DNA of 55,216 nt, taken from assembly GCA_030637655.1 (NCBI GenBank), contig DAOWGI010000072.1, positions 1 through 55,216 of the forward strand. The letters run 5' to 3'. Numbering within the stretch: the first letter of the stretch is position 1; each line of letters opens with the position of its first letter. The notes under the pieces were generated by a model. It was not told the DNA's origin, did no database searches, and saw nothing but the letters and a program-made list of their open reading frames with translations. Below are positions 2,588-21,551 of this stretch, piece by piece. Position numbers and translations under genes: made by a program. The DNA is from a candidate division FCPU426 bacterium (GTDB taxonomy: Bacteria > Oederibacteriota > JAAXVQ01 > JAUVAV01).

Positions 2588-3991
2588 TTATTTTTTCTCA
2601 ATACCCAACCGCTTCATAGTCTGCCGTAAATAGGCATTTGCCATGCCCAAGGCTTGCGAGGTCTTTAAAACATTCCCTTTATTCTGTTCCAAATGATAGG
2701 TGTAATACTCTCTTTCCATGCCTTCTCTGGTCTTGTCCAAAAGCTGCTTGAAATCAGAATATTTGATTTCTTTATTGAATTCCGATCCCTGTACCACCTC
2801 TTGTTCATTCTCAATCTTCAACTCATCGGCAAATTTTTTCTCAAGATCTTTCAATTTTATTGTATCACCCTGGCAATTATCCACCGCGTTCTCAATATAA
2901 CTCTCCAAACGGCGTATATTACCTTTCCAGCTCATTTTTTTAAAACGTCCAATTATTTCATCGTCTACTTTTAATATATTTTTCTTCTTTTCGATGTTGC
3001 ATTTCCTCAAAAAATGCTCAACCAGTATGGGAATATCGTTTAAACGTTCCCGCAAAGCAGGGAGTTCCACTTTACTGGTTTCCAAACGGTAATATAAATC
3101 TTCTCTGAATTTGTTTTTTTGAACTTCCGTAATTAAATCACGGTTGGTGGCAAATATGAAAACAGCATCAACGTGCCTGGGTTCACTCGAACCAATTCTA
3201 TTAAAAGTCTTATGCTGAGTTAATCTTAATAATTTCGCCTGATGCGCCTCGGTTAATTCAGCAATCTCATCAAAAAATACAATCCCGCCTTGCGCTTCTT
3301 CCACCATCCCCTTTTTATTTTTCGCTTGCGGAAATGCTCCCGGCACCGTTCCAAAAACTTCTGTTTCAAAGAGATCACCCGGAAAAGCCGAACAAAGAAT
3401 CGTAACAAAAGGCCGGTCTTTTCTCGGACTGTTTCTCCGGTAGTACTGAGCAGCGACTTCTTTACCGGTCCCGGTTTTCCCTTGAATCAGCAGATTGCTC
3501 TCTGCTTTAGCGGCATTGCTGATATGCCACATTGCTTCTAAAAAAGCGGGCGCCTTCCCAATCATTTCACTTTCCGTGTCCTGAATGCCGGAAACGATAT
3601 TTTTAGAGGCTAATAGACAATCTTTGATTTTCTCCAATACTCTTTCATACCCACAATCATCTTTCAAAAAGTATCCTGTGATACCTAAAGCGGTCAGCTT
3701 TTCCAGGCGTGGCGCATCCATTGTTCCACTGATAACAAACACAGGCAATTCGGATGTATTCGGATAATTATCCCGAAGTTCTTTTAGAATATCTATTCCC
3801 ACAGTATCATTTTCATCGCTAAAGCTAATATCCAGGGTAATCAAATTCGGCGCGAATTTCTCTATCTTCTGCAACACACCTTCTTTCTGTAGGTGATACT
3901 CTACCGTATATCCTTCATCTTCGAATTTCCCTTTCAGGGCTTCCACTACATCAATGTTATCTTCAATAATTAATATTTTTGACACAGCCAC
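2588..3991 (-). CDS. NtrC/Fis-family response regulator (REC-AAA+-HTH) with atypical GAFTGA motif
   Basis: Receiver (ILIIEDN, LITLDI), Walker A GKTGTGKE, Walker B FFDEI, FREDLYYRL, WKGNIRRL and a C-terminal Fis HTH. GAFTGA reads GAFPQA. Confidence 0.92.
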   Translation of the reverse strand: MAVSKILIIEDNIDVVEALKGKFEDEGYTVEYHLQKEGVLQKIEKFAPNLITLDISFSDENDTVGIDILKELRDNYPNTSELPVFVISGTMDAPRLEKLTALGITGYFLKDDCGYERVLEKIKDCLLASKNIVSGIQDTESEMIGKAPAFLEAMWHISNAAKAESNLLIQGKTGTGKEVAAQYYRRNSPRKDRPFVTILCSAFPGDLFETEVFGTVPGAFPQAKNKKGMVEEAQGGIVFFDEIAELTEAHQAKLLRLTQHKTFNRIGSSEPRHVDAVFIFATNRDLITEVQKNKFREDLYYRLETSKVELPALRERLNDIPILVEHFLRKCNIEKKKNILKVDDEIIGRFKKMSWKGNIRRLESYIENAVDNCQGDTIKLKDLEKKFADELKIENEQEVVQGSEFNKEIKYSDFKQLLDKTREGMEREYYTYHLEQNKGNVLKTSQALGMANAYLRQTMKRLGIEKK

Positions 3992-4009
3992 ACTCCTTAT
4001 AAAAAATTC

Positions 4010-5257
4010 TCAAGCTGTTGGTATAGTCAAGAAAAATTCAGCGCCTTTACCCTGCACACTGTTTGAAACCCCCAAACTACCTTCCATAAGCTCTGCCAAT
4101 TTTCGCGAAGTAGCCAATCCAAGTCCCATACCTTCTTTATTGGGATTCAATTGCATATACGGTTGAAATATCTTTTCCCAATCTTTTTTATAAATCCCCG
4201 GACCTTGATCACTGATTAAGATCCTTACCATTTCCTCCTGTTTTTCAATACGTATGCCAATTTCCGTGTTAAAAGGCGAAAATTTCATGGCATTATGAAG
4301 CAGATTCTTTATTATTCTTTTTAATACTTGCGGATCCGCTTCGACATAAAAAGGCCCGGTATTTTTATTATATTTATAGCGCATTCCGCGTTTGGCCATA
4401 TGTTCTTCTATTGCTTGCATTACGGACACAACACTTTCAGTGATATCCATCGTTTCAATTCTAATCTCTGTTTTTCCTTCTTCCAGCTTCTGTTGATCAT
4501 TAAGATTATCCACAAAACGATAAATCGAATCCGTACTTTCTTTAGATATTTTCAAGTCCTTTTTCAAATCAACTATTTTTTTATTTTCATCCAGTTTTCC
4601 TAAAAGCGAAGATAATTTTGTATTAATGATAAACAAGTCCTGTTTCGCGTCATGAGTAATGCCATAGATCATATCTGCCTTGGTTTTCTCGGTTTTCTTT
4701 AATTTGTGATGGGTAGTATACAACCAAATTCCGAGACCGGCCAATATCAACAGTAGAAAACCAATCACAGCAAATGCCTGCAAAATACCATTTTTGGGAG
4801 CCTGGTATTCTGCCAGGGAAAATATGGTTTTTATACGTGCCTGATTTTCTTCATGATAATTCAAGTTCTGCTGCACATACAGTTTTTGTGTTTTGCGATT
4901 TAAAAAGGAGGATTGATCCTTAGCGTCCATTTGCGCCGGCCACGTGATTTTTTCGTCAGCAGAAGGCAGTACTTGTTTTCCATCTATAAAAACAGCAATT
5001 TCATCCAAAAAATTAATCTCTTTTAATAATTTTCTGGTCTTTGAAAAATCCACGTAATCTTTATTTGATAAAAAGTAGTCTGCTGTTTTAGAAATGTTTT
5101 TGGTAAAATTCTCATGCTCCGCGTGACGCAATTTTTCAAAGCGCTGGACATTAGACCAAATCGTGCCAATGGCAACAAAGGATAACAAAATTATAACCAC
5201 TCCAAGGATTAAAATCCAATACTCCTTGAATTCTCTTTTTTTCTTTGGTTTCCCCAT
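4010..5257 (-). CDS. Membrane sensor histidine kinase
   Basis: Two TM helices flank a periplasmic domain. H-box ITHDAKQDL, N-box NLLHNAMKF, G1 DQGPGI, G2 GMGLGL. Confidence 0.92.
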   Translation of the reverse strand: MGKPKKKREFKEYWILILGVVIILLSFVAIGTIWSNVQRFEKLRHAEHENFTKNISKTADYFLSNKDYVDFSKTRKLLKEINFLDEIAVFIDGKQVLPSADEKITWPAQMDAKDQSSFLNRKTQKLYVQQNLNYHEENQARIKTIFSLAEYQAPKNGILQAFAVIGFLLLILAGLGIWLYTTHHKLKKTEKTKADMIYGITHDAKQDLFIINTKLSSLLGKLDENKKIVDLKKDLKISKESTDSIYRFVDNLNDQQKLEEGKTEIRIETMDITESVVSVMQAIEEHMAKRGMRYKYNKNTGPFYVEADPQVLKRIIKNLLHNAMKFSPFNTEIGIRIEKQEEMVRILISDQGPGIYKKDWEKIFQPYMQLNPNKEGMGLGLATSRKLAELMEGSLGVSNSVQGKGAEFFLTIPTA

Positions 5258-5274
5258 GTTTTCCCTGTTTCCCC

Positions 5275-7407
5275 TTACTTACTTGGCACAAAACGCTCAA
5301 TCTTAAAAAACTCCAGAAATTCCTTGGCCTTGGGATCAGAATGAAACTTCAGCAAGGCTGCCATCAGCAAATCCATTTGCCCGTTCTTCGTCTTGTTTTG
5401 CGAAGATGTCACATATAAATACGTATTAGGCTTGGCTTGGGAACGGGCAATGATTTTAACTTTTGGCAAATCGGGTCCCTTTTTAATAACATCCAATATA
5501 TACTCATATTCAACCACAGCATCAACCACGTCCATTTGTAATGCTGTTAAGCTTCCCCGGACATGCTTGTGTTTTTCCAGGAACTTAAAATAAGTGTCTG
5601 TTGAAAAACCGTCAACGGTTTGATAAAAATCATCCTTTAACATTCTTTTCAGCCGTATATTCGAGTACCCAATCCGCTTACCGTGTAAATCTTCGGCTGC
5701 TTTAATTTCACTATCTGCCAATACCAACAAACAACACTGCTGACTGGTCTTGCCATGGGATTGAATGGTTACTTGGGGTTGAATCAGATCATCTTTTTCA
5801 AACTTGGCAAAATCCGATTCATACGAAACCAGGATATCTATCTCTCCTTGTCTCAAACCCAATTGCATTTCCGCCGGACTGACGTATTTCCACTCCACTT
5901 CCAGACCGCTGGTTTTTTCAATATGTTTTCTCAGATAATTGGTTATGCTGTTAATCTCCTTCAGATTTCCAAAATCCGTAAAAACCTTTTTTTCGATTCC
6001 CACCACTATTTTATTCGGATATTTGTCCTGAATCACCACTGCTTTTTCAGTATCCAGTTTTGAAATTTCCGCTGCTTTTAGTTCGAGAATCAGGGTTTCA
6101 TATAAGCTTTGCACTTTTTTGATTTCAATTTCAACTTTGACCACAGTTTCATTCGCTTCTGAGGCTATATTTAATATTTTTTCACTGCTCTCCTCAGCCT
6201 TTTCCAGGGCTATTTTGGCATTCAATTTGGCAGTAAAAATTTTATCGCTACAGCTCTCTATCGCCGCCTTAATCTTCTGCGCTTTGTTTGGATCCTCTGT
6301 TTTGGAAAGCTCAATCGCAGCCCGCAAAATCAGCGCTACTTCCTCTGCCAGCTTTTGCGCTGTACTGGATTTTTTTATTACCGCATTGGCTGTTGCCATG
6401 ACTTCCAGAGTTTTTCGCACTTTAGCATCTTGTTGTTTCTCCAGACTACCCCACCGTACGGTCATGCCCACCCGATGTGTGCCCAAAGAATCAGCCAACT
6501 GAAAAGGATAGGAAAATGCGTAATCCAGTTGAAGTCCCAAATCCGCTTCCAAACCGGCATAGCAAAAACTCAGACCACTGGTAAAACGCTCTGCATTCAC
6601 ACCGGCGCGCAGAGCAACCAAATAATTGAACCACCGGGACTCAACGCCAAACTTTGGGACATATACCCAATTGCGCGCGGATAATTCCGCTGTGACCATC
6701 AAAGAATCCAGCCATTCCTGCTTGGCAGGAAACGTATATGTATAGGCAGTACCAACACGATAAATAGCCGGCACAATTTCCTCCACAAACATACCGACAT
6801 TGGCTGGGATTACATTGTCCACACTCAAGCCAATATTGAAGCCTTCAAATAAAGAAGCCAGAATTCCCACATCAGCTGTAAAACCATACTTTTCCGTTCC
6901 CTTGGTGAAAATCTCAGGAGTTACATACTCCCCACCTTCCACCATCCAGTGCAAAAGTTTTACAGAAGCACCCACATCCAGAAATACACCGCTGTCCATA
7001 ATATAGGGTTCCCACAAGCGTTTGCCGTATGATAGCGTCACTGTATTTTCCTGGTAAAAAACAGTATTAAACTGCGTCCAACCGGCACCCAGCCCACCTC
7101 CTAAAAATCCAACCGGCACTCCCAAAGATATAAAATTATAGCCAAATCCATCATCAGCTTCATTGTAGAGTCGTACATTGAGGTTGGAGTACAGATCCGC
7201 GTACATACCGGTCAATTCCCAGGCATCCAAACGGGCATAACCGGCCGGATTAAAAAGCGCTGAATTGGCATCATCCGCCACTGCCACAAATGCCTCACCC
7301 ATACCGGACGGCCGGACACCATTGGCAAAATCCATAAAATAGGCTGAAATTGGGGAATTAAGAGAAATTATCAAAAAGAGAAAAATAAAAAGGCTTTTAA
7401 GTTTCAT
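5275..7407 (-). CDS. PorV-like beta-barrel fused via a helical/coiled-coil linker to a phosphonate-binding (PhnD-like) periplasmic binding domain
   Basis: Signal peptide. GVRPSGMGEAFVAVADDANSALFNPAG starts and LDYAFSYP..LGTHRVGMTVRW ends the barrel. An A/E/K-rich helical middle follows. The C-terminus has LVLADSEIKAAEDLHGKRIGY and ALQMDVVDAVV, typical of PBP2/PhnD folds. Confidence 0.7.
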   Translation of the reverse strand: MKLKSLFIFLFLIISLNSPISAYFMDFANGVRPSGMGEAFVAVADDANSALFNPAGYARLDAWELTGMYADLYSNLNVRLYNEADDGFGYNFISLGVPVGFLGGGLGAGWTQFNTVFYQENTVTLSYGKRLWEPYIMDSGVFLDVGASVKLLHWMVEGGEYVTPEIFTKGTEKYGFTADVGILASLFEGFNIGLSVDNVIPANVGMFVEEIVPAIYRVGTAYTYTFPAKQEWLDSLMVTAELSARNWVYVPKFGVESRWFNYLVALRAGVNAERFTSGLSFCYAGLEADLGLQLDYAFSYPFQLADSLGTHRVGMTVRWGSLEKQQDAKVRKTLEVMATANAVIKKSSTAQKLAEEVALILRAAIELSKTEDPNKAQKIKAAIESCSDKIFTAKLNAKIALEKAEESSEKILNIASEANETVVKVEIEIKKVQSLYETLILELKAAEISKLDTEKAVVIQDKYPNKIVVGIEKKVFTDFGNLKEINSITNYLRKHIEKTSGLEVEWKYVSPAEMQLGLRQGEIDILVSYESDFAKFEKDDLIQPQVTIQSHGKTSQQCCLLVLADSEIKAAEDLHGKRIGYSNIRLKRMLKDDFYQTVDGFSTDTYFKFLEKHKHVRGSLTALQMDVVDAVVEYEYILDVIKKGPDLPKVKIIARSQAKPNTYLYVTSSQNKTKNGQMDLLMAALLKFHSDPKAKEFLEFFKIERFVPSK

Positions 7408-7712
7408 TATTATTACCCTTTGTTGAATTTTTCGTGCATTGTATTTTGAGGGGAATTATACTTTGTCCCTTTCCATATGTCATGTTATTTTCACAGTTTT
7501 CTTATTTAAAATTAGGTACACTTTATAGATGCAAATCTCGTAAATTTATTTCAGATTATTTCTTAAGAAGAATGAATATTCATCCCAGACCAGATAACAA
7601 ACTCCGTATCTGAAATTGTTTCGAATTTCGTATTTAGAATTTGCCTTTTGCCTTTAACTTTGTTTCACATTTCGATATTCGAGCTTCGGATTTGCTTAAT
7701 ATTTTATTTAAA

Positions 7713-7736
7713 GGGCGACCCGCAGGTCGCCCCTAC
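7713..7736 (-). repeat. GTAG-type REP-like palindrome
   Basis: Minus strand GTAGGGGCGACCTGCGGGTCGCCC. Confidence 0.7.
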
Positions 7737-7768
7737 TTTATTAACACCACTTTTCCCGCTGAGCTGCG

Positions 7769-8695
7769 CTAGCGTTCGATTTGCACTAAAAACGCCTCAA
7801 TGGCTTTAATCACTTCGCCTTGACTGGTTTTGTAAAGGGTTAAAAGATGCCGGTTATGTTCCCAATTTGTCAGATCAAATTCTTTGGTCTGAATTACCTG
7901 GGATGAAACCTTATTGGCAATATAAGCCATATTCTCAAAAAGCGCGGATTTATCCCCTTTGGAATGCATAATAAGGATCGGCGCCTTTATTTGTAATAGT
8001 CTTTTCCGTGCCTGATACATGCCCATTTTCAAACTATAGACTTGTTTACAATAATTTTTGCCTTGATACCAAAAGTGTTCTGCTCCATCCTCATCCACTT
8101 CAGGTTTAATTTCATCAATCTCCGCTATTATCCATGAGATAAAACGTACCAAATAGACACGCCAATCATACAAAACACCCGCACCCAATACATTATTAAA
8201 AAAAGCCGGCGCTGCAATGGTAATAATACCATCAGGCGCTAAATCAGCATTGAATTCTTCAGCCAACGTAAGTGCAATCGTTCCTCCCATGGACAAACCG
8301 CATATATAGACCTTGTCATATTTCGTCCTCAAATCCAGATACGTATCGCGCGCACAAGCCTGCCATTGCGCAAAATATGTCTTTTTAAAATCCTTCGCTT
8401 TGGTTCCATGCCCGGGATAGAGCGGAATAACCACATTGTATTTTTCTAAAAAAGCTTCAGCCACTTTTTTAAAATCATTGGGAGAGGATTTATAACTGTG
8501 CAAAAAGAGAATAACGCCGGCTTTTTTAGGTTCAGTCAAAAACATTGGCGATACTTCGGACACAGCCCATTCCTCCGGTTTTGACACTTGATATTCTTTA
8601 GTCTCACTGTATAAAAACGGTGTTTCATTAAATAAAAAAATGATAAAACCCAGTACTATTATTACTCCAAGTATCCCCGGCAAATATTTGAACAT
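7769..8695 (-). CDS. Membrane-anchored alpha/beta hydrolase (carboxylesterase/monoacylglycerol lipase-like)
   Basis: N-terminal TM, LYPGHGT, nucleophile elbow GLSMGG, HSKGD, and a late His. Confidence 0.88.
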   Translation of the reverse strand: MFKYLPGILGVIIVLGFIIFLFNETPFLYSETKEYQVSKPEEWAVSEVSPMFLTEPKKAGVILFLHSYKSSPNDFKKVAEAFLEKYNVVIPLYPGHGTKAKDFKKTYFAQWQACARDTYLDLRTKYDKVYICGLSMGGTIALTLAEEFNADLAPDGIITIAAPAFFNNVLGAGVLYDWRVYLVRFISWIIAEIDEIKPEVDEDGAEHFWYQGKNYCKQVYSLKMGMYQARKRLLQIKAPILIMHSKGDKSALFENMAYIANKVSSQVIQTKEFDLTNWEHNRHLLTLYKTSQGEVIKAIEAFLVQIER

Positions 8696-8908: not shown

Positions 8909-9829
8909 TTATGTATGTCTCCTGGAACTAATTAATCGTGCCATTCTCTCCCGGACAATTCGAAGCAGCCTGTCTTTTTCCTCTTCTGTCAATTTTGAAT
9001 CCAGAATCATTTCCTTAATGATTTTTTCCTGGTCTAAAAATTTGTTGGCTACGACTTTGGGCGGGATTCCAAGGTAATCAGCCAAGGCCTTAAAATCCTC
9101 GACTGTAATTTTATTCTTTTTGCCATTGATCGATAATGCCGAATCCTCTTCTCCGGGAATGAGCAATTTAGAAGAAACAATATCATACGCTGGGGCCAGA
9201 CGGATGTAATTCGGGGCGGTGTAATAAATCGAGAAATTTTTAAAATGAGCGTCGCCATTACCTATTATGAAATAAAACAATATTCTCTCAAAAAAGAGCT
9301 GTACATCCAAACCAGGAACGCTTGAAACCATTTTTAGCTTTTTCCCGATTTCCTCCACCGATCCCTGATACTTGTCTTGCTTTCCCAAAATCTGGAAAAA
9401 ATCTTCCTGGTGAATTTTTGTTTGTCCCATTCGGTCAAATCGCTTCACAAGATACGCCCAAGTTTGATCCTTTAGTCGTAACAGCATATGTGGTGGTATG
9501 TCGATTCCCAGATGAGCGGCAATGGTCATGCACAACTGTTCATTTTGAGGTAAATTCAGAAAGGTAATGACTTGCGGCTTCAATATAAATTCACCGTCGG
9601 TTGTCACAACTTCAAGCTCTTTAGTCTGCCGATTGAGGCGCATAGACAATTTAGGCTGAACCCCTGAAATAGATAGTTTCCCAGCCATTTTTTGGGCCTG
9701 AATAGAAACTTCAGCCAGCGATATATTTACTTGCGGCTGATAATTAACCTTGAAAATTTTCCGCAGACAAGCTTTGTGTATAGGTACTTCATCGGTTAAT
9801 GGTTTTCCGCAACTTAAACAACTTTCCAT
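8909..9829 (-). CDS. hipT: HipT/HipA-like serine/threonine kinase toxin (HipA C-terminal domain)
   Basis: KLSISGVQPKLS Gly-rich loop, KRFDR, HQEDF, GNGDAHFKNFS, LAPAYD. N-terminal CxxC...HxxC. Confidence 0.88.
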   Translation of the reverse strand: MESCLSCGKPLTDEVPIHKACLRKIFKVNYQPQVNISLAEVSIQAQKMAGKLSISGVQPKLSMRLNRQTKELEVVTTDGEFILKPQVITFLNLPQNEQLCMTIAAHLGIDIPPHMLLRLKDQTWAYLVKRFDRMGQTKIHQEDFFQILGKQDKYQGSVEEIGKKLKMVSSVPGLDVQLFFERILFYFIIGNGDAHFKNFSIYYTAPNYIRLAPAYDIVSSKLLIPGEEDSALSINGKKNKITVEDFKALADYLGIPPKVVANKFLDQEKIIKEMILDSKLTEEEKDRLLRIVRERMARLISSRRHT

Positions 9830-9831
9830 AT

Positions 9832-10158
9832 TTATTTCATCTCCCACACGCTCACCGCGCCAATAGTATCCTGGCAGGTCGCTAATAATAATCCAAACCT
9901 ATTGGTTTTATCGATTTTCAAGGTCGAACATACTGTATCCAGATACCAGCCTTCGGGTAATAAGCCGATAAAAAAAGGAAACAACTCTTCGTTTTCATGG
10001 ATAGATTGATTAAAAGGCATTGATACGGAAATGGAAATTTTTTTTTCTAAAAAATGCTTATCATAACTAAAACGATAACCGCCCTCGATTTCTTCCAAAA
10101 CCCCGGCACGCTCGTTTTGATAACGAATTTCCGCCCTTCTAAATTTACTCCCTTTCAT
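9832..10158 (-). CDS. hipS: HipS-like antitoxin (HipA N-terminal/couple_hipA domain)
   Basis: AGVLEE, YRFSYD, ISVSMP, FPFFIGLLPEGW, DTIGAVSV. Lies between the HTH gene and the kinase gene. Confidence 0.85.
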   Translation of the reverse strand: MKGSKFRRAEIRYQNERAGVLEEIEGGYRFSYDKHFLEKKISISVSMPFNQSIHENEELFPFFIGLLPEGWYLDTVCSTLKIDKTNRFGLLLATCQDTIGAVSVWEMK

Positions 10159-10345
10159 TTTGCACAACCTCTAAATGATATCCAAAAAATTCCAAAACCT
10201 GATTTACTTTGTCCAAACGAACCGTGGGCTTATCCCTTTCCAGCTCTCGCACAAATCTCAGACCGATTCCACAACGTAGAGCAAATTCCTCTTGCGTTAA
10301 TTTAGCCTGTTTACGTAATTCACGCACTTTTTTTGCAATATTCAC
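10145..10345 (-). CDS. hipB: HipB-like XRE-family HTH regulator
   Basis: RKQAKLTQEEFALRCGIGLRFVRELERDKPTVRLDKVNQVL. GTG start after GGAG. Confidence 0.88.
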   Translation of the reverse strand: MNIAKKVRELRKQAKLTQEEFALRCGIGLRFVRELERDKPTVRLDKVNQVLEFFGYHLEVVQNERE

Positions 10346-10704: not shown

Positions 10705-12203
10705 TTATTTGATCAATACAACCTTGCCGGTCACTCTTTTATTTTCCGCCTCAATTTGATAAATATATACCCCACCCTCGCACAACCGCCCGTTTTCGCT
10801 CCGGCCGTCCCAGGTTTTTTCATTGCGAATGGTTCTCACTACCTGTCCCCGAATATTCATGATGCGTATGGTAATCCCGGCATTGGTATCATGCAGCTGA
10901 AAGTTAAAATACACGGTTTGCCCTGCAGCCGGTATAAACGGATTGGGTGTGGCATAGCCTCCCTTGTGAAATGGTTCTACTGTCGGAGTCGTGTCCCTAA
11001 AAACCAAGGTACGATGATTATATGTATCAGAAACATAAATCAAGTCACTATCTGCCACAACATCCGATGGATAGAAAAGCGTGGTGGCGTTTAATTGCCC
11101 GCCCTTATTGCTTTTTTTATAAGCTATGGTTTTTTTTTTTGCCCGATTACCATGTCCGCCTGGGCATTGTTTGTCTCTGGAATGGTATTATAGATCAGCA
11201 CCCGGTTATTGGCCTGGTCTGCGATAAAGAGCCGGGTGTCCTGAATACATAGTCCGGCAGGTAAACAGAGCGTACGGCTGGTTGGGGGATAGTTAAAATA
11301 ATCCCATTCTTTCTGATCTCCAGACTGCTGATTGGGAGCACAGGAGTACATATCCGGCTGCCCGATGACAATATCCGCGCCGGCAAAATTGTTATTGGGA
11401 ATCGAACTATAGATCAACACCCGGTTATTAAATGAATCAGAGATAAAAAGGCGCTGATTATGATAATAAACCACATGCGGTTGATGCAATCCTTTCGGTC
11501 CGACATCCCCGTTATAATTATACCTTTTCCCGGAAAAATCCGGCTGCCCGATCACCACATCCGCCTGTGCATCATGCGTTGTGGGGATGTTGTTGAAGAT
11601 CAGTACGCGGTTATTATACGCGTCCGCGATAAATAATTTCTTACCGTCTGAAGCCACACACATGGGATAATACAAGGTATGGCTATCCGGCTCATCCAGG
11701 CCTTGGTTGGGAGAATTCGATTGCATATCATTCTGACCGATCACAATATCCGCTGAAGCGCCATTTGTGGTGGGAAGGTTATTATAGATCAACACCCGGT
11801 TGTTTTGAGCGTCTACTACAACTAATTTGTTGTCAGCGATAATCATTTTAGTCGGTTTACTCAACCGGTTTGCTTTAGGCGGATCCGCAATGGGAGATAA
11901 AGCATAATCTTCCCAGCCGATGACAATATCAGCGGCCGGATAACTTGCATAAGGCACGAGACTGTATATTAATATCCGTTGCCAATCAGTATCTGCAACA
12001 AACAATTGGGTGTCTGTCTTGAACAAACCTGTGGGTACTTTCAAATGATAGGCATCAAGCTGGTCAAGGCTGCTGGTAAAATCAGGCTGACCAATGACAA
12101 AATCAGCAGATTGGTTGTCAAAATAGGCCAAGGCCTTTAACGCCAATATATGCGAAATTATACAAGCAATAACCAGCAAGTACGTTCTTCTCACAAGTCC
12201 CAC
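10705..12203 (-). pseudogene. Secreted NHL-repeat beta-propeller protein with FlgD/T9SS-like C-terminal domain, split by a frameshift in an A11 run
   Basis: ORF 12203..11124 has a signal peptide and repeats of LFIADxxNNRVLIYN...ADIVIGQPD. After the A11 tract (11130-11140) another frame continues the repeat (TIAYKKSNKGGQLNATTLFYPSDVVADSDLIYVSDTYNHRTLVF) into ORF 11058..10705 (PNPF...WDGR...GVYIYQI...GKVVLIK). Confidence 0.85.
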
Positions 12204-12493
12204 CTTTTATGCCCACTATTTAAGCAATATTATTTTTCCGCAATAACAATTAAAATTTAGGTCAGATTATATTCTTTTTCATTGAAATGCACAAGAAAGA
12301 TGTTGATTTTTTTGGGCAATTCATTGGATGAAGTTCGTGGATTCAAGGTCTCAATGAGTAAGTTGAAAAGTTTAGAAATCGACCGTCAGAAACAGTATAT
12401 CCGTTTATTTTAGTTGATGCATTATATGAAAAAGGACGGATGGAGATATCCTGCCAGTGCAGTAATGGTGGCGTTTGGCGTAAATGAATCCGT

Positions 12494-12544: not shown

Positions 12545-14968
12545 TTATTTCACTACCGCAATTTTGTTCCGCTGCACAAAATCTTTGGCGCGGATTTCCA
12601 GAATGTAGATGCCGCTGCTCACTTCATGGCTTAGCTCATTGGTCCCGTTCCAGGTATAGGTGTAAAATCCAGGAGCCAGCACTTGGTCTTTGACAATAGT
12701 CTTGATCCTTTCCCCAACCAAATTATACAAACTGACATTTACCGTACCACTCTGGCTGATATCAAGGTAAATATCGCAGGTTGAATTGTTGCGGTTGATC
12801 AGATTTTTCCTGACCCGGCAATCCATGCTATCCGGCGGCGCAACTCCCAGGATTAATTTTCTGGTCAGACTATAACTGGACCTCATGTCCAATTCATCTA
12901 TACTGTATGCCCGCCAATAGTATATTCCCGGCGATAAGTCTGTGATCTCCACCGCGGTTTCTGCATTATTCCCTGTTAAAGCAGTACTATTATATTCAGC
13001 TAGCAAATGATTGAGTTCCGGATCAGTATAAAGTTGATAAACCACGCTCCCTTTATTCGGCGCTGTTTCCGGGTTTTCTTGATAGGTGGCTGTCAAACGT
13101 ACTACTTTAACCTTCAAACTTGCGTCTGCTGCCGGACTGACCAGTTGCGGCGGATTAGCGTATTCTGCAGATAGTGTAAACTTTCTTGAAGCGCTAAAGT
13201 CGGATTTTATACCTTCCTGGTCCACACTATAGGCCCGCCAATAATATCGGCCTGGCGGTAAACCGCCCACGCTCACTGATGATTCCAAACCATGATCTAC
13301 CATGGTTTGCCCAATGAATTCTTTGACTTGCACAAACTCAGGATGAGAAGACACTTGATATGCCACCTTGCCTGGTTGAGGCGAATCAGGATTTTCATGA
13401 TATTTGGCGGTTAGCTTGACCACCTTGACAGCCAATGTTTTGTCAGCATGCGGACTGATTAATTGAGGCGATTCAGCATAAACCAGTTCTACTTTGGCGG
13501 GAGTGGTTTTTTCTGATGACAAACCCAGACTATCCACGCACCAGGCACGCCAGTAATAGATGCCATAGCTTTGAAATCCCTGATTAAGTTCTGCCCAATT
13601 TTTTTTGGAGTTCAGTACTTCACTGTAGGAGCCGGCTTCTATATTTGAAAAGTCCATAGACTTGCTGATTTCAATATAGATGCGGCCACGGGTAAGGGTT
13701 GGCGGCAGTTTTACTGAAAACTTCACTGCCCGGGATGGATAGTACTCACCGGATTTGGGTTTAATAATCTCAGGTTGATCCGGCTTGGGTATTTCGGGTA
13801 TATGGAAATATTTGCCGGCTTGAATTAACACTGACGGTATCTCAGACCCAGGAGAAAATATTTTGACTGTGCCGCCATTTTTTGCGCTTGTTGAGGTAGT
13901 CCATCCACCGCCTTTGCTGTAAATAAACCCATTAAACCATTCTTCCTGAACTTGGGGACAAAAAAGTAGTACACCGCCGCCGGCGCCATGACCACCATCG
14001 CTCCCGCGGCCACCGCGACCGCCACTTCCACCTTTACCTCCGCCATAAGAATGCCAACCCCAGTAGTCCTTCCATCCTGCTTCTTTGTGCCCCCCGGCTC
14101 CGCCATATCCGCCACTGCCCTGGCTGCCGGATTGGCCGGAAACATCAATTATGCCATGCATGATTAATTTTTTTGTGGCAAATAATTTAACCAATGAACC
14201 GCCATTTCCGCCTTTGCCGCCTCTGCCACCACTGCCGCCTCTGCCGCCATGTCCACCTACCTTATAACCAGCACCAATTCCACCGCCGCCGCCACCGCCG
14301 CCGCCGGCTCCACCACCGCCGGCTCCACCGGCTGAACCTCTGTAAACAGTCAAGTCGTTATTTCGTTTCTCAGTATTATCAGCAATACCAACATAGCCGC
14401 CATTTTGTCCTGAGCGTCCTATACCATGACCACCCCTTCCTCCACTTCCTCCTGATGCCCAGGTTGATGAACGACCGCCACTTCCATTATTGCCTGAATA
14501 ACCCCAGCCTCCCTCACCACCATATAGCCCCTCGCCTCTGCGACCCTGTGTTGCAGCCCCGCCGCTTCCTCCGGAGTTACCATCCCAATGGCCTGCTCTT
14601 CCTCTCGTACCACCGCCACCGCCAGGGGCTCCACTCGCTCCATCAAATCCTCTATACGCTCTGCCAACACCATCAATTTTTCCTTCCAGTACTATCTCAT
14701 TAGCATAGAGTTCCAAAGTACCGGTTGCTGAGAAGGTATTACCATTGTAGGTCTGTACAAATAAAGTTGCATCCTGTGCGATATGCACTTTATCGTAAAA
14801 CCACTTGCCATACTTGGTTTCAGTCCCGGATTCAAGCCTGAGTTCGCCTTCATAGATGCCGTCTTGATTTCCCGAATCGATATTGTTTGCTGCTGCCGAG
14901 ACCTGCCAATTACCTGCCAATCCCAATAGAGCTATACATGTTATTATTGTTTTAATATATGTTCTCAT
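12545..14968 (-). CDS. Secreted glycine-rich protein with three Ig/FN3-like repeats and a FlgD/T9SS-like C-terminal domain
   Basis: Signal peptide, a long GGxGGxG-rich region, three ~100-aa repeats each with GxYYWRA, and C-terminal LYNLVGERIKT...WNGTN...SSGIYILEI...KIAVVK. Its ATG overlaps the upstream stop (ATGA). Confidence 0.8.
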   Translation of the reverse strand: MRTYIKTIITCIALLGLAGNWQVSAAANNIDSGNQDGIYEGELRLESGTETKYGKWFYDKVHIAQDATLFVQTYNGNTFSATGTLELYANEIVLEGKIDGVGRAYRGFDGASGAPGGGGGTRGRAGHWDGNSGGSGGAATQGRRGEGLYGGEGGWGYSGNNGSGGRSSTWASGGSGGRGGHGIGRSGQNGGYVGIADNTEKRNNDLTVYRGSAGGAGGGGAGGGGGGGGGIGAGYKVGGHGGRGGSGGRGGKGGNGGSLVKLFATKKLIMHGIIDVSGQSGSQGSGGYGGAGGHKEAGWKDYWGWHSYGGGKGGSGGRGGRGSDGGHGAGGGVLLFCPQVQEEWFNGFIYSKGGGWTTSTSAKNGGTVKIFSPGSEIPSVLIQAGKYFHIPEIPKPDQPEIIKPKSGEYYPSRAVKFSVKLPPTLTRGRIYIEISKSMDFSNIEAGSYSEVLNSKKNWAELNQGFQSYGIYYWRAWCVDSLGLSSEKTTPAKVELVYAESPQLISPHADKTLAVKVVKLTAKYHENPDSPQPGKVAYQVSSHPEFVQVKEFIGQTMVDHGLESSVSVGGLPPGRYYWRAYSVDQEGIKSDFSASRKFTLSAEYANPPQLVSPAADASLKVKVVRLTATYQENPETAPNKGSVVYQLYTDPELNHLLAEYNSTALTGNNAETAVEITDLSPGIYYWRAYSIDELDMRSSYSLTRKLILGVAPPDSMDCRVRKNLINRNNSTCDIYLDISQSGTVNVSLYNLVGERIKTIVKDQVLAPGFYTYTWNGTNELSHEVSSGIYILEIRAKDFVQRNKIAVVK

Positions 14969-16275
14969 AATTCCTCCTCATTATTCTCCGTTTTAGCGTG
15001 TTTATATATAACCGCGCTTGGTTTTTTACCCAAATCACGGCTAATGCTTAAAACTTCTGCAATAGATTGCGAGACATTGGCCTCCTGAATACGAATGCCT
15101 GCCACTGCCTGGCCGGCTGCATTGACAATCACACCCTTGTATCCCACTTGTATTCCCTGGCTATGCCCGGCATTGAGCAGTACGCCTGATACCCGGCCGC
15201 CGGTTTTCTCCACTTGCAGAATTTGGGCAGGGATTTTATTAATAGCTTGGTCCGGTTGCTGAACCTGCTTGTGATAATTGGAAATATCCAGCTCTTGTTT
15301 GCCTTGAGCTTGTTTTTTATCTTTGGTTGTTTGCTCAGGCAATTTATTGATCACATAAGTCAGGCCGGCCCTATGCGTGTGGTTCAAAGCACCTGTCAGG
15401 TTAAAAGCATAATCCAATTGCATACCTTCCAAGCGAAGACCAACACCTAAGGTGAGCCCCTGGACGTCATGCCCAAATTTATATCCGCCGCGTATGGCCA
15501 CCTGATCCATTATCATGAGCTCTGCTCCAACCTGCTGTTGCCAGTTTTCCTGTAGATCGCATTGCACATCAGCTGCCAGCAAAAGCCCGAGTTTATCCCC
15601 TTCCAGTACCTGACACGCCGCGCCGGCAGAAGCAGTCAGGGGTAGATCAAAGGGTTGTTCCACATATTTCATGGGCGTGCCGATGTTTTTGATCACAGCA
15701 CCAATTGCAAGATTGTCCAACATGCTGTCCAATTGCCACCGAAATCCTATGTCTCCGGCAACTGACACGGCAGAATATTGGTCCAATAAAGTGGAATGAA
15801 GTAATTTGAGATTAATTCCCACATCAATCGGTTCATTTAAAAATCCGGATTTATATGCCAAGGTTATATTCGCTAAAATATCGCGCTGGGCATTAAAGCT
15901 CGAAATCCGCCCATTGGCATCGATCAGGTCAAATTGCCCGGCATCGTAAATGAGCACAGAACCACCCACAGCAAAGGTTTGGCTGAGATTGGCGGAATAA
16001 TTAAATGCCCCATACATGTCTTCCACCAGACCGCGATAAGCTACTGCAGATAATGCTTGTTGTTTGCTGTCTACCAAACCAGCGGGATTGTAACTTAAGG
16101 CCCCGTCCTGATTGACAATGGCTGCTGTCTGAGCACCGGCCATGCCATCAGCTCGCGGGCTAAAGTGGTTTTTCAAAATAACTCCTGAACTACTGCCATA
16201 ATCACCAGCTTGTGCCAATGAAATGGTCAAGCTAAAACCTATAAGTACTGCTGCACAACAAATTCTTTTTTTCAT
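14965..16275 (-). CDS. PorV/PorQ-family outer-membrane beta-barrel with C-terminal FlgT-C-like domain
   Basis: Signal peptide, SPRADGMAGAQTA...YNPAGL, NIGTPMKY, AIRGGYKFG, LDYAF...THRAGLTY. Extra tail VLLNAGHSQGIQVG. GGAGG RBS before ATG 16275. Confidence 0.78.
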   Translation of the reverse strand: MKKRICCAAVLIGFSLTISLAQAGDYGSSSGVILKNHFSPRADGMAGAQTAAIVNQDGALSYNPAGLVDSKQQALSAVAYRGLVEDMYGAFNYSANLSQTFAVGGSVLIYDAGQFDLIDANGRISSFNAQRDILANITLAYKSGFLNEPIDVGINLKLLHSTLLDQYSAVSVAGDIGFRWQLDSMLDNLAIGAVIKNIGTPMKYVEQPFDLPLTASAGAACQVLEGDKLGLLLAADVQCDLQENWQQQVGAELMIMDQVAIRGGYKFGHDVQGLTLGVGLRLEGMQLDYAFNLTGALNHTHRAGLTYVINKLPEQTTKDKKQAQGKQELDISNYHKQVQQPDQAINKIPAQILQVEKTGGRVSGVLLNAGHSQGIQVGYKGVIVNAAGQAVAGIRIQEANVSQSIAEVLSISRDLGKKPSAVIYKHAKTENNEEEL

Positions 16276-16300
16276 GGTTAGCACCTCCTGTAAGTTTTGT

Positions 16301-20556: not shown

Positions 20557-21207
20557 CTAACACGCAATTCTGTACCGCAAGTTCAGTTGACTCTTTGCAC
20601 CGGCAATCAACGCTTCCCGAGGACGGACAAATTGTTCCTGAATCATCCTGGCCATCATTTCTTTTGCGCGCATCAAATGCAGGCCAATGGCTCGCACGGG
20701 TCTGCGCAACAGGCCGGCGGTTTCTTTGTAGGTACGATCTTCCAGATAGGTTTTTTTCACTGCTTCATAATAAATTTCCGGCAACTGCTCAATGACTTCA
20801 TGTAATTGATCTTTTTCTTCATTAAGCACGACTTGTTCTTCCGGATTTGAACTCTTGCAAGGCAGGACTTCTTCTAAGGGCGTGTATTGCTCCGAATTCA
20901 CATAACTTAATTCGCGCAGCTTTTTACGTTTTCTGAACAATTCATTGCATTCATTGATCGCGACACGCTTGATCCACGACCACAATTTAGCTTCTCCGCG
21001 AAAATTAAATATTTTACCTTGTATAAGAATCTTCAAAAACACTTCCTGCGCCACGTCTTGTCCGTCTTCCGGCGAATGTAAATGCCGGCTGCACAAATTA
21101 ACAATGCTCTCGTGATAACGGCCATAAATCTCTTCTCCTGCTGCTGTGTTTCCCTGGCGTAAGTCATTAATTAATTCCTGGTCTGTAAGTTCTTTTAGAT
21201 CTTTCAT
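20557..21207 (-). CDS. ECF-type RNA polymerase sigma-70 factor
   Basis: TDQELI, DGQDVAQEVFLK, FRGEAKLWSWIKRVAIN (region 2) and IEQLPEIYYEAV...TYKETAGLL (region 4). Confidence 0.9.
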   Translation of the reverse strand: MKDLKELTDQELINDLRQGNTAAGEEIYGRYHESIVNLCSRHLHSPEDGQDVAQEVFLKILIQGKIFNFRGEAKLWSWIKRVAINECNELFRKRKKLRELSYVNSEQYTPLEEVLPCKSSNPEEQVVLNEEKDQLHEVIEQLPEIYYEAVKKTYLEDRTYKETAGLLRRPVRAIGLHLMRAKEMMARMIQEQFVRPREALIAGAKSQLNLRYRIAC

Positions 21208-21248: not shown

Positions 21249-21265
21249 AGCAAGCTACATGCCAA
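21249..21265 (-). promoter_or_regulatory. Sigma-54 (-24/-12) promoter of the ECF sigma gene
   Basis: Minus strand TTGGCATGTAGCTTGCT: GG and GC separated by exactly 10 nt, about 40 nt upstream of ATG 21207. Confidence 0.8.
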
Positions 21266-21336: not shown

Positions 21337-21378
21337 TTGATAGGAAATACTATCAAAGTAATAGTAGGAACTAACAAT
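21337..21378. promoter_or_regulatory. Candidate tandem enhancer (bEBP upstream activating) sites
   Basis: Perfect TTGATAG-N6-CTATCAA (21337-21356) plus an adjacent imperfect TAATAG-N6-CTAACA, roughly 100-140 bp upstream of the predicted sigma-54 start. Confidence 0.6.
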
Positions 21379-21551
21379 ATAAAATAAAAGCAAATACGAA
21401 TATCGAAACAAATCAAAAATTTGAAATTCTAAACATCTTTGATCGGATATTTTTCAATTTGGTCTTTTATCACTGTTGTCCAAGTCAGCTGCGTACCGTG
21501 TTATAAGTTGGGGAATGTATCATGTCAGTAAACTGCAGTTAAACAGAGGTT

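Follow-up and report, generated by a model that had tools for sequence, protein, structure and literature searches.

In Escherichia coli and Salmonella, the QseG-QseE-QseF system (GlrK/GlrR) couples an outer-membrane lipoprotein to a two-component system. QseG binds the periplasmic loop of the histidine kinase QseE and is needed for phosphorylation of QseF, which activates the sigma-54 promoters of glmY and rpoE (PMC6075780). QseG acts while anchored, and when its tether is shortened by 11-16 residues signalling stops unless the protein is released (PMC12691602). The proteins AioX, ArxX and ArrX serve a kinase and a regulator, not a transporter; AioR and ArxR are sigma-54 AAA+ proteins, the genes are co-transcribed, and liganded AioX is thought to act on the kinase AioS (PMC5908839). 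Here we describe a three-gene module of a candidate division FCPU426 bacterium that resembles both systems in logic and differs from both in its anchor. It lies on contig DAOWGI010000072.1 (assembly GCA_030637655.1; 3.28 Mb, 120 contigs, 91.6% complete), and the window is the whole stretch analysed, 55,216 nt long. The module encodes a fusion protein, P0001, in which a FadL/PorV-type outer-membrane barrel is joined through a linker to a PhnD-fold binding domain, together with a histidine kinase, P0002, and an NtrC-type regulator, P0003.

These genes probably constitute the core of a conserved envelope-spanning signalling cassette, in which an outer-membrane-tethered accessory sensor would act on the kinase, the kinase on the sigma-54 regulator, and the regulator on the gene of an extracytoplasmic function (ECF) sigma factor. 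They lie head to tail on the minus strand, with gaps of 17 nt between the fusion and kinase genes and 18 nt between the kinase and regulator genes. The same gene set recurs in other genomes, and the arrangement is therefore more than chance. An earlier note on this DNA, made from the sequence alone, had proposed conserved co-occurrence of the three genes as the check on its reading; indeed, of 16 barrel-fusion loci, 15 have the kinase gene next to the fusion gene and 14 have the regulator gene there. These 16 loci comprise the window, a paralogue on contig C49 of the same genome, and 14 of 17 stretches fetched from eight related genomes. The 17 stretches are all of the binding-domain matches that lie in long open frames; five of them are shared with an earlier alignment-query search, and the two sets were not summed.

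The likeness to QseG-QseE-QseF extends from an outer-membrane-anchored accessory protein, a kinase and a sigma-54 activator to an ECF gene (rpoE in that system) with a sigma-54 promoter. The three qse genes form one operon, and the length of the tether matters (PMC6075780, PMC12691602). In the module described here, the corresponding parts are the barrel anchor, the kinase, the sigma-54 regulator and, at 10 of 11 loci, a -24/-12 element ahead of the ECF gene. However, QseG, a lipoprotein, has a helical domain of its own, whereas the accessory protein here is a barrel with a PhnD-fold domain, in another phylum; no homology to QseG was seen in the Pfam matches of P0001 (E ≤ 0.01), and the likeness is one of logic only. 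With AioX-AioS-AioR, ArxXSR and ArrXSR the module shares a transporter-less PhnD-fold protein that is encoded with a kinase and, in Aio and Arx, with a sigma-54 regulator; here, too, the binding protein is encoded with a kinase and a regulator, and transporter genes were not found nearby. The differences are that AioX is free in the periplasm whereas the domain here is tied to a barrel, that none of six aligned AioX pocket positions is kept, that no arsenic genes lie nearby, and that the output here is an ECF gene. The earlier note knew of no described system with this architecture. That statement has to be narrowed, since the logic matches QseG-QseE-QseF and AioXSR, but for the barrel anchor we found no description. 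Accessory-protein-dependent two-component signalling was already known; it is the barrel anchor that is new, and with it the architecture and the conserved five-part cassette. Taken together, fusion, kinase, regulator and ECF sigma factor probably represent a novel route by which the outer membrane is connected to gene control. Literature searches on barrel-binding-protein fusions, on PorV with kinases and on the outer membrane of this phylum, with subscription journals and supplements outside their coverage, returned nothing relevant.

A profile search of 1.84 billion representative proteins gave 14,570 matches, which are for the most part barrels alone. The fusion of the barrel with PF12974 is rare and amounts to at least 23 clusters at 50% identity, according to a Pfam check of the top scorers; the named relatives are Candidatus Firestonebacteria and Goldiibacteriota metagenome-assembled genomes and one 'candidate division FCPU426' protein. 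When the binding domain was used as the query (E ≤ 1e-8), 11 of 99 genomes of the phylum were matched. They belong to the window's own family (seven of 10, plus the window's genome itself) and to a sister family (three of four), with none in 21 other families. The fusion protein P0004 (64% identical) and the kinase P0018 (66% identical) both come from contigs of which the longest is 4438 bp.

In the 14 barrel-fusion stretches, a P0002-like kinase gene and a P0003-like regulator gene are adjacent in 13. The remaining three of the 17 (L120:224-2683, L121:2878-5292 and L122:7023-8783, all on the minus strand) encode the same binding-domain subfamily behind a different secreted N-terminal module, which shows an apparent internal duplication and motifs like GWG(T/S)(I/V)(R/Q)S and (Y/F)RCxRI(F/Y). 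L122 retains the kinase core, the regulator and the ECF gene; in L120 the sensor part of the kinase lies at the contig edge. Two gene orders are found, cargo-fusion-kinase-regulator-ECF and cargo-kinase-regulator-fusion-ECF, where cargo denotes a gene for a secreted protein with a C-terminal domain (CTD) like those of type IX secretion systems (T9SS). L116, the closest relative, shares with the window the arrangement ECF, cargo, fusion, kinase, regulator; the window has extra genes between, namely the operon at 12.5-20.5 kb, the frameshifted NHL-repeat gene, hipA-like genes and a hydrolase gene. Because the set survives both the change of gene order and the swap of the N-terminal module, the binding domain appears to be the constant partner of the kinase, and this argues for a functional unit in which these two form the constant pair.

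The same evidence bears on a reading without any signalling link, in which the fusion is a structural or assembly factor for nearby surface proteins, the kinase senses by other means, and the operon is shared through co-regulation. We consider this very unlikely. The contact between fusion and kinase is one that we infer, and the paralogues of the barrel that are extended by OmpA or TPR domains look structural, both of which would suit such a reading; but neither the two gene orders nor the exchange of the N-terminal module separates the binding domain from the kinase, and the closest solved members of its fold are kinase co-sensors.

A gene homologous to the ECF gene of the window is present in nine of the 14 barrel-fusion stretches and in 10 of the 17 stretches overall. 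Judged by its sequence, the window gene is orthologous to the ECF genes adjoining the module elsewhere. Of 11 loci, 10 carry a -24/-12 element (two mismatches or fewer) that is placed 49-108 nt ahead of where the ECF tblastn match begins, and these 10 elements include all three of the perfect sites and six of the seven one-mismatch sites in the 365,636 nt scanned. In the relatives, the element sits between the module and the ECF gene. The element of the window, TGGCATGTAGCTTGCT, has one mismatch and is the best sigma-54 site in the 55 kb. It is the proposed target of P0003, which is the sole sigma-54 activator found on the 55-kb contig; rpoN is present in the genome. Short boxes lie around 82 and 104-106 nt upstream of the -24 position in L116, L126 and L127 (CCRKCCT) and in the window (TTCCTAY). 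They are candidate activator binding sites and serve as a lead only, the patterns having been picked after looking at the sequences. Neither the 360 nt that precede the fusion gene in the window nor the sequence past the regulator gene contains a -24/-12 element with up to two mismatches, and therefore the operon of the module itself does not look sigma-54 dependent there. In L028, a perfect sigma-54 element, TGGCACGCCCGTTGCA (L028:2646-2661), precedes the cargo gene that heads a cargo-kinase-regulator-fusion operon; an ECF gene was not found at this locus, and the module may be autoregulated there.

The earlier note had read P0001 as a PorV-like barrel, a helical stalk rich in A, E and K, and a PhnD-like binding domain. 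For P0001 itself, each of these assignments is borne out. P0001 has a single hydrophobic segment, the N-terminal signal peptide. An AlphaFold model built with 12 family members (mean predicted local distance difference test score (pLDDT) 80) consists of a plug, 14 strands at residues 63-319, helices and a two-lobed domain; the arrangement of the domains in this full-length model is not reliable (predicted template modelling score (pTM) 0.45). A model of the barrel only, built with 22 sequences (pLDDT 85, pTM 0.81), again has 14 strands, and Foldseek matches it to FadL (3pgr, E 2e-11) and to PorV (8gl6_F, query-normalised template modelling score (TMq) 0.69; 6h3i_F, TMq 0.64). The plug motif GVRPxGMGEAFVAVADD...NPAG is conserved, with N53, A55 and G56 invariant and P54 in at least 90% of 12 sequences. 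The 14 strands and the plug with its NPA motif place the protein in the FadL/PorV superfamily. By sequence models the relationship is distant: the NCBIfam PorV/PorQ match (NF033709, residues 22-271, E 4e-9) is weak at 36.4 bits against a cut-off of 90, and the model for PorV proper (NF033710) gives 16.3 bits against a cut-off of 250, which leaves P0001 outside PorV proper. PF11751 scores above its cut-off in the relatives P0023 and P0026, whereas P0001 itself has no PF11751 match.

The genome of the window contains 29 tblastn matches to P0001 and 47 frames that match the barrel profile. In the 15 long paralogues that were scanned, the C-terminal part is OmpA in five, TPR in six, Phosphonate-bd in one (on contig C49) and other or none in three; all of the barrel paralogues share the same plug motif, including those fused to OmpA and TPR. 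OmpA domains act in the periplasm and both ends of an even-stranded barrel are periplasmic, and therefore the C-terminal extensions of this barrel family are periplasmic. FadL/PorV-type barrels are thus shown to be modular anchors for periplasmic domains (OmpA, TPR or binding domain) in this poorly known phylum. In domain content, the paralogues with OmpA or TPR parts resemble a PorP-PorE fusion. Paralogues of the barrel match the Pfam family UPF0164, to which the FadL-like proteins of Treponema pallidum also belong. The latter are FadL-type barrels that have 14 strands and an alpha-helical C-terminal extension presumed to lie in the periplasm (PMC8407342); the extension is helical or TPR only, without a binding domain, and no kinase neighbourhood is reported for them.

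The binding domain is recognized as Phosphonate-bd (PF12974) at residues 489-709 (E 2.4e-18, 66.8 bits against a cut-off of 27), and the only other Pfam matches of P0001 at E ≤ 0.01 are NMT1 and SBP_bac_3. In the model, residues 467-708 form a two-lobed alpha/beta domain of the PhnD type. In a profile search against all PDB sequences the top matches were ArrX (1.4e-10), 7t1m, which is the sterol binder of Methylococcus (6e-9), AioX (7.8e-9) and an ancestral binder of amino acids. Foldseek gave 1.9e-14 for ArrX (6x8w) and 1.8e-13 for 7t1m; the best folds are ArrX, PtxB and AioX, with target-normalised TM scores of 0.70-0.76. By tblastn, no ABC transporter ATPase gene was found in the 17 stretches (to about 7 kb from the match or to the contig end) or in window positions 1-24000, and a role of the domain in delivery to a transporter was rejected because ABC genes are lacking nearby.

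That PhnD-fold domains can hold hydrophobic ligands follows from the sterol binder 7t1m, one of the best relatives of this domain, and would suit a reading of P0001 as an uptake-coupled sensor, in which the FadL-type barrel passes a hydrophobic compound to its own tethered domain, which both shuttles the compound and signals its presence to the kinase. The plug retains the NPA motif of FadL-type transporters (role of NPA: PMC8407342). We nevertheless give this reading only a small chance of being right. The same plug motif occurs in the OmpA- and TPR-fused paralogues and is therefore no mark of a transport role, no inner-membrane transporter is encoded nearby, and the substrates of FadL exit sideways into the membrane, not into the periplasm (PMC8407342).

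The linker of P0001 consists of A, E, K, Q, R and L to 58%, and its helices are modelled at residues 322-368, 375-404 and 409-447, in agreement with the helical stalk of the earlier note. Across the family, however, the stalk is not a conserved structure. Over 12 aligned members the linker varies from 57 to 149 residues without conserved positions; it is A/E/K/Q-rich and helical in around eight of the 12, and proline-rich (16-26% Pro) in three or four. It is a spacer, not a conserved stalk. A helix rises 0.15 nm per residue and an extended proline-rich chain around 0.3 nm, as a rule of thumb, and both kinds of linker, if extended, could reach roughly 17-22 nm, which is of the order of the width of the periplasm.

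The two-transmembrane kinase that the earlier note placed 17 nt from the fusion gene, with the H-box HDAKQDL and a regulator beside it, agrees with our coordinates, transmembrane segments and domains. In P0002, hydrophobic segments within residues 9-38 and 153-183 flank a periplasmic part of around 115-120 residues, and a HAMP domain is absent. HATPase_c matches at E 1.6e-23; His202 of the H-box, THDAKQDL, is invariant in eight of eight orthologues, and the ATP-binding boxes are complete, with N318/N322, D350-G352-G354 and G376-G378-G380 invariant. P0002 is thus of the HisKA type, although the Pfam HisKA model itself gave no match at E ≤ 0.01. When used as a homology query, the sensor part of the kinase found one relative, P0018; the method depends on shared words, and this result is a poor gauge of rarity. 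In the ESM Atlas, the sensor part has single-Cache and LapD/MoxY-like neighbours at 0.92-0.94, which is a lead only. P0003 matches Sigma54_activat at E 1.8e-51 and has the REC domain and the lid, the LD acceptor motif and GKTGTGKE; it matches many members of the NtrC family, GlrR being just one among these. The other sigma-54 activators of the same genome mostly retain GAFTGA in the sigma-54 contact loop.

We propose that the cassette works as follows. The barrel would sit in the outer membrane, and, because a barrel of 14 strands has its two termini on the periplasmic side, the C-terminal tether and the PhnD-fold domain would hang into the periplasm, the linker being a spacer long enough to bridge it. 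By analogy with the action of AioX on AioS and of QseG on QseE, and given that no transporter was found, the PhnD-fold domain would be an accessory sensor that touches the periplasmic domain of the kinase depending on its ligand or state. The kinase would then phosphorylate the NtrC-type regulator, which would activate the sigma-54 promoter ahead of the ECF gene, and the ECF sigma factor would switch on genes for the cell surface. In the window these would be the operon at around 12.5-20.5 kb, where another PorV-like barrel is encoded along with proteins that have T9SS-like CTDs. Of this scheme, the folds, the conserved set of genes, the missing transporter and the conserved sigma-54 promoter ahead of the ECF gene are observed, whereas the touching of kinase and binding domain, the direction in which it would act, the ligand and the ECF regulon are inferred. 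As to what the sensor reads, a small periplasmic molecule seems to us the likeliest candidate, followed by the state of the barrel or of its cargo, and then by the uptake of a hydrophobic compound.

Several observations weigh against this proposal. The contact between the binding domain and the periplasmic domain of the kinase is proposed by analogy rather than directly seen; a complex prediction for kinase residues 36-160 with binding-domain residues 455-710 gave scores of 0.38, 0.01 and 0.00 without controls, and is used neither for nor against the contact. The GAFTGA loop is nearly invariant in model activators, but the sigma-54 contact loop of P0003 (residues 218-223) reads GAFPQA. In the L116-L131 orthologues the loop is variable as well (GAHSMA, NAFNGA, GSYSSA and YSFSDA, beside canonical GAFTGA), and because of this departure activation of sigma-54 by P0003 is not certain. 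In the window, the ECF gene lies 13 kb upstream of the fusion gene with other genes between, and therefore its link to the module rests on synteny in the relatives. At one barrel-fusion stretch (L132) there is no kinase gene within around 7 kb, and the C49 paralogue has a kinase but not a regulator. Furthermore, the related genomes share ancestry, and the locus counts are not independent; the independent signals are the two gene orders and the module swap.

The binding of a ligand by the PhnD-fold domain is likewise only predicted. None of the six AioX pocket residues that fall in the aligned part is kept (Cys106, Tyr131, Ser161, Ser163, His192 and Asp210, as named in PMC5908839; Tyr88 lies outside the aligned part). 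At these positions the family has Tyr or variable residues, Gln/His, variable, variable, Ala/Val/Thr, and Tyr/Phe or variable residues, respectively. Close to where the pocket tyrosine falls, the family shows fair conservation of a Gln/His and of a Cys, each in 10 of 12 members. The Ser-x-Ser oxyanion motif was not found in the aligned family, which sets the domain apart from the oxyanion binders PhnD, PtxB and AioX. From the loss of the AioX pocket residues and of Ser-x-Ser it follows that the ligand, if any, is by these residues not an arsenic or phosphorus oxyanion. The arsenic or phosphonate reading of the domain was accordingly rejected.

A gene with a T9SS type-A-like CTD lies beside the module in 12 of the 14 barrel-fusion stretches. 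In the loci for which open reading frames were listed (C49, L024, L028 and L030), this cargo gene is directly upstream of the module and encodes a secreted protein of 448-490 aa; the bodies are unrelated (LamG, other) and the CTD of around 85 aa is common to them. TIGR04183 scores (cut-off 23) are over the cut-off at 33.5 (the NHL-repeat gene of the window), 29.5 and 26.2 bits and just under it at 22.0 and 22.2 bits; CHU_C and FlgD_ig scores for the cargo CTDs are similar, at or near their cut-offs. The whole genome contains 68 frames with T9SS-like CTDs and 47 barrel frames. A CTD gene is directly upstream of 28 of the 47 barrels, and 28 of the 68 CTD genes are followed by a barrel. In the T9SS, type B CTD proteins bind and are anchored by PorP/SprF-like barrels, and PorP binds the periplasmic protein PorE (PMC9143113). 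The barrels described here are of the same superfamily as PorP/SprF and PorV and are likewise paired with CTD proteins, although not in the case of the window's own gene, and the scores of P0001 are far below the PorV cut-offs. The literature searches turned up no T9SS barrel described as bearing a binding domain or as genetically associated with a kinase. Searches for SprA (TIGR04189, PF14349) and GldM (TIGR03517) gave no match in the genome; control genomes were silent too, so that absence is not proven. These findings suggest a possible sorting or anchoring system made of T9SS-like parts without a known translocon.

The earlier note proposed that the unit could relay an outer-membrane or secretion-state signal. 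There is indeed a link of the secretion type, in that a T9SS-like CTD gene precedes most orthologues. In a reading built on such a signal, the barrel holds the CTD of a secreted protein, and plug and tether convey the barrel's occupancy or strain to the binding domain; the latter binds no small molecule and only alters how it touches the kinase, so that the cascade reports that the surface protein is in place, or what that protein binds outside. Besides the pairing of CTD genes with module and barrels and the binding of type B CTD proteins by PorP-like barrels (PMC9143113), the loss of the AioX ligand pocket and the better conservation of the barrel (38-57% tblastn identity to the window protein vs 21-38% for the binding domain) would fit it. 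We regard it as unlikely all the same. The window has no adjacent CTD gene, for the nearest one carries a frameshift and lies 3.3 kb upstream, with hipA-like and hydrolase genes in between; three loci swap the barrel for another module while the binding domain stays; no mechanism is known by which a FadL-type barrel signals to a C-terminal extension; and SprA and GldM were not found, within the limits just given. An extension of this reading, in which the surface protein held by its CTD in the PorV/PorP-like barrel is itself the receptor for the outside, with the state of the barrel passing through plug and tether to the binding domain, the kinase, sigma-54 and the ECF factor, is distinctly unlikely. 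If true, it would be the first outer-membrane barrel covalently wired to a two-component system, and a counterpart of FecA-FecR-FecI made from secretion-system parts, in a lineage with T9SS-like domains and barrels and no recognisable translocon.

A few proteobacterial lipoproteins (QseG, NlpE and RcsF) are known as accessory proteins that report the state of the outer membrane to inner-membrane kinases. In the cassette proposed here, the accessory job is apparently done by a domain fused to an integral barrel, which would fix barrel, measurable spacer and sensor in a 1:1 ratio and provides a natural experiment on the influence of tether length and periplasm width on signalling. The parts are small enough for the cassette to be rebuilt in the laboratory. 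The cassette also ties T9SS-like sorting domains to a two-component, sigma-54 and ECF cascade in organisms without a recognisable T9SS. A cascade of two sigma factors is known from Borrelia burgdorferi, where, in the Rrp2-RpoN-RpoS pathway, an NtrC-type regulator activates the sigma-54 promoter of another sigma factor gene; there, however, the second sigma factor is RpoS, not an ECF factor, and an outer-membrane accessory sensor plays no part. The coordinates of the module and of related features of the window are given in Table 1.

Table 1. Positions in the 55,216-nt window of the module, its protein parts and associated elements
Feature	Position	Strand	Description
Fusion gene P0001	5275..7407	-	710 aa; stop codon 5275-5277; signal peptide, FadL/PorV-type barrel, linker, PhnD-fold domain
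Barrel part, residues 23-319	6451..7341	-	N-terminal plug and 14 strands; AlphaFold models, Foldseek
Linker, residues 320-465	6013..6450	-	146 aa; modelled as three helices
PhnD-fold binding domain, residues 466-710	5278..6012	-	Pfam PF12974, profile vs PDB, Foldseek
Histidine kinase gene P0002	4010..5257	-	415 aa; two transmembrane segments, HDA-type H-box, HATPase_c
NtrC-type regulator gene P0003	2588..3991	-	467 aa; REC, sigma-54 AAA+, lid, C-terminal DNA-binding part
Upstream intergenic region of fusion gene	7408..7768	-	Sequence read by eye
NHL-repeat propeller gene	10705..12206	-	T9SS type-A-like CTD; TIGR04183 33.5 bits
ECF sigma factor gene	20557..21207	-	216 aa; Pfam Sigma70_r2/r4_2/ECF; tblastn 30-44% to module neighbours
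Sigma-54 -24/-12 element TGGCATGTAGCTTGCT	21249..21264	-	Ends 42 nt before the ECF ATG
Two TTCCTA(C/T) boxes, 24 nt apart	21340..21370	-	Candidate regulator site; pattern chosen post hoc

At a run of A near 11124-11190, the NHL-repeat gene breaks into two frames (...GQKKKP* / AKKKT...); the cause may be a genuine frameshift, slippage or an error of assembly. The gene is possibly the cognate cargo gene of the window's fusion; beyond the CTD, orthology of the NHL propeller to the cargo of the relatives was ruled out. Between this gene and the fusion gene lie a HipA-like kinase at 8909-10167 (minus strand), present as two overlapping open reading frames (Couple_hipA N-domain, 9832-10167; HipA_C, 8909-9847), and an alpha/beta hydrolase gene (7769-8695). 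In relatives the cargo-type gene and the fusion gene adjoin each other, and the HipA-like and hydrolase stretch looks like an insertion.

The operon headed by the ECF gene contains the second, plain PorV-like barrel gene (439 aa) at 14965-16284 (minus strand), after which an 807-aa glycine-rich protein with a sorting-type C-terminus is encoded. Homologues of this barrel (25-27% identity) lie beside the module in L123, L125, L126 and L127. Elsewhere in the genome of the window (G000), contig C60:7678-10578 encodes a paralogous kinase core, a sigma-54 activator and an ECF sigma factor, with the -24/-12 element CGGCACGCTACTTGCT at 9899-9914; a sorting-domain protein and a plain barrel come next.

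When the intergenic region upstream of the fusion gene was read by eye, a GC-rich hairpin with a T-run was seen at around 7710-7735, 3' of the hydrolase gene, and a TATAAT-like hexamer at around 7454-7459. On the other side of the module, trpD (1487-2587) starts 72 nt past the regulator stop codon on the same strand, a terminator between the two is not obvious by eye, and transcription may here cover the module together with tryptophan biosynthesis genes. The 12-mer CGAATATCGAAA occurs five times in the 3.28-Mb genome, and three of the copies are in the window: past the regulator gene (2531-2553), before the fusion gene (7659-7681) and upstream of the ECF promoter (21397-21408). It is embedded in a longer motif rich in CAAAT-CGAAAT. 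As a binding site of the regulator it was set aside, because the two other copies (G000 C23:47 and C85:9604) are in unrelated operons, one of them beside a MoxR gene; it may be a small dispersed repeat, or a regulatory site.

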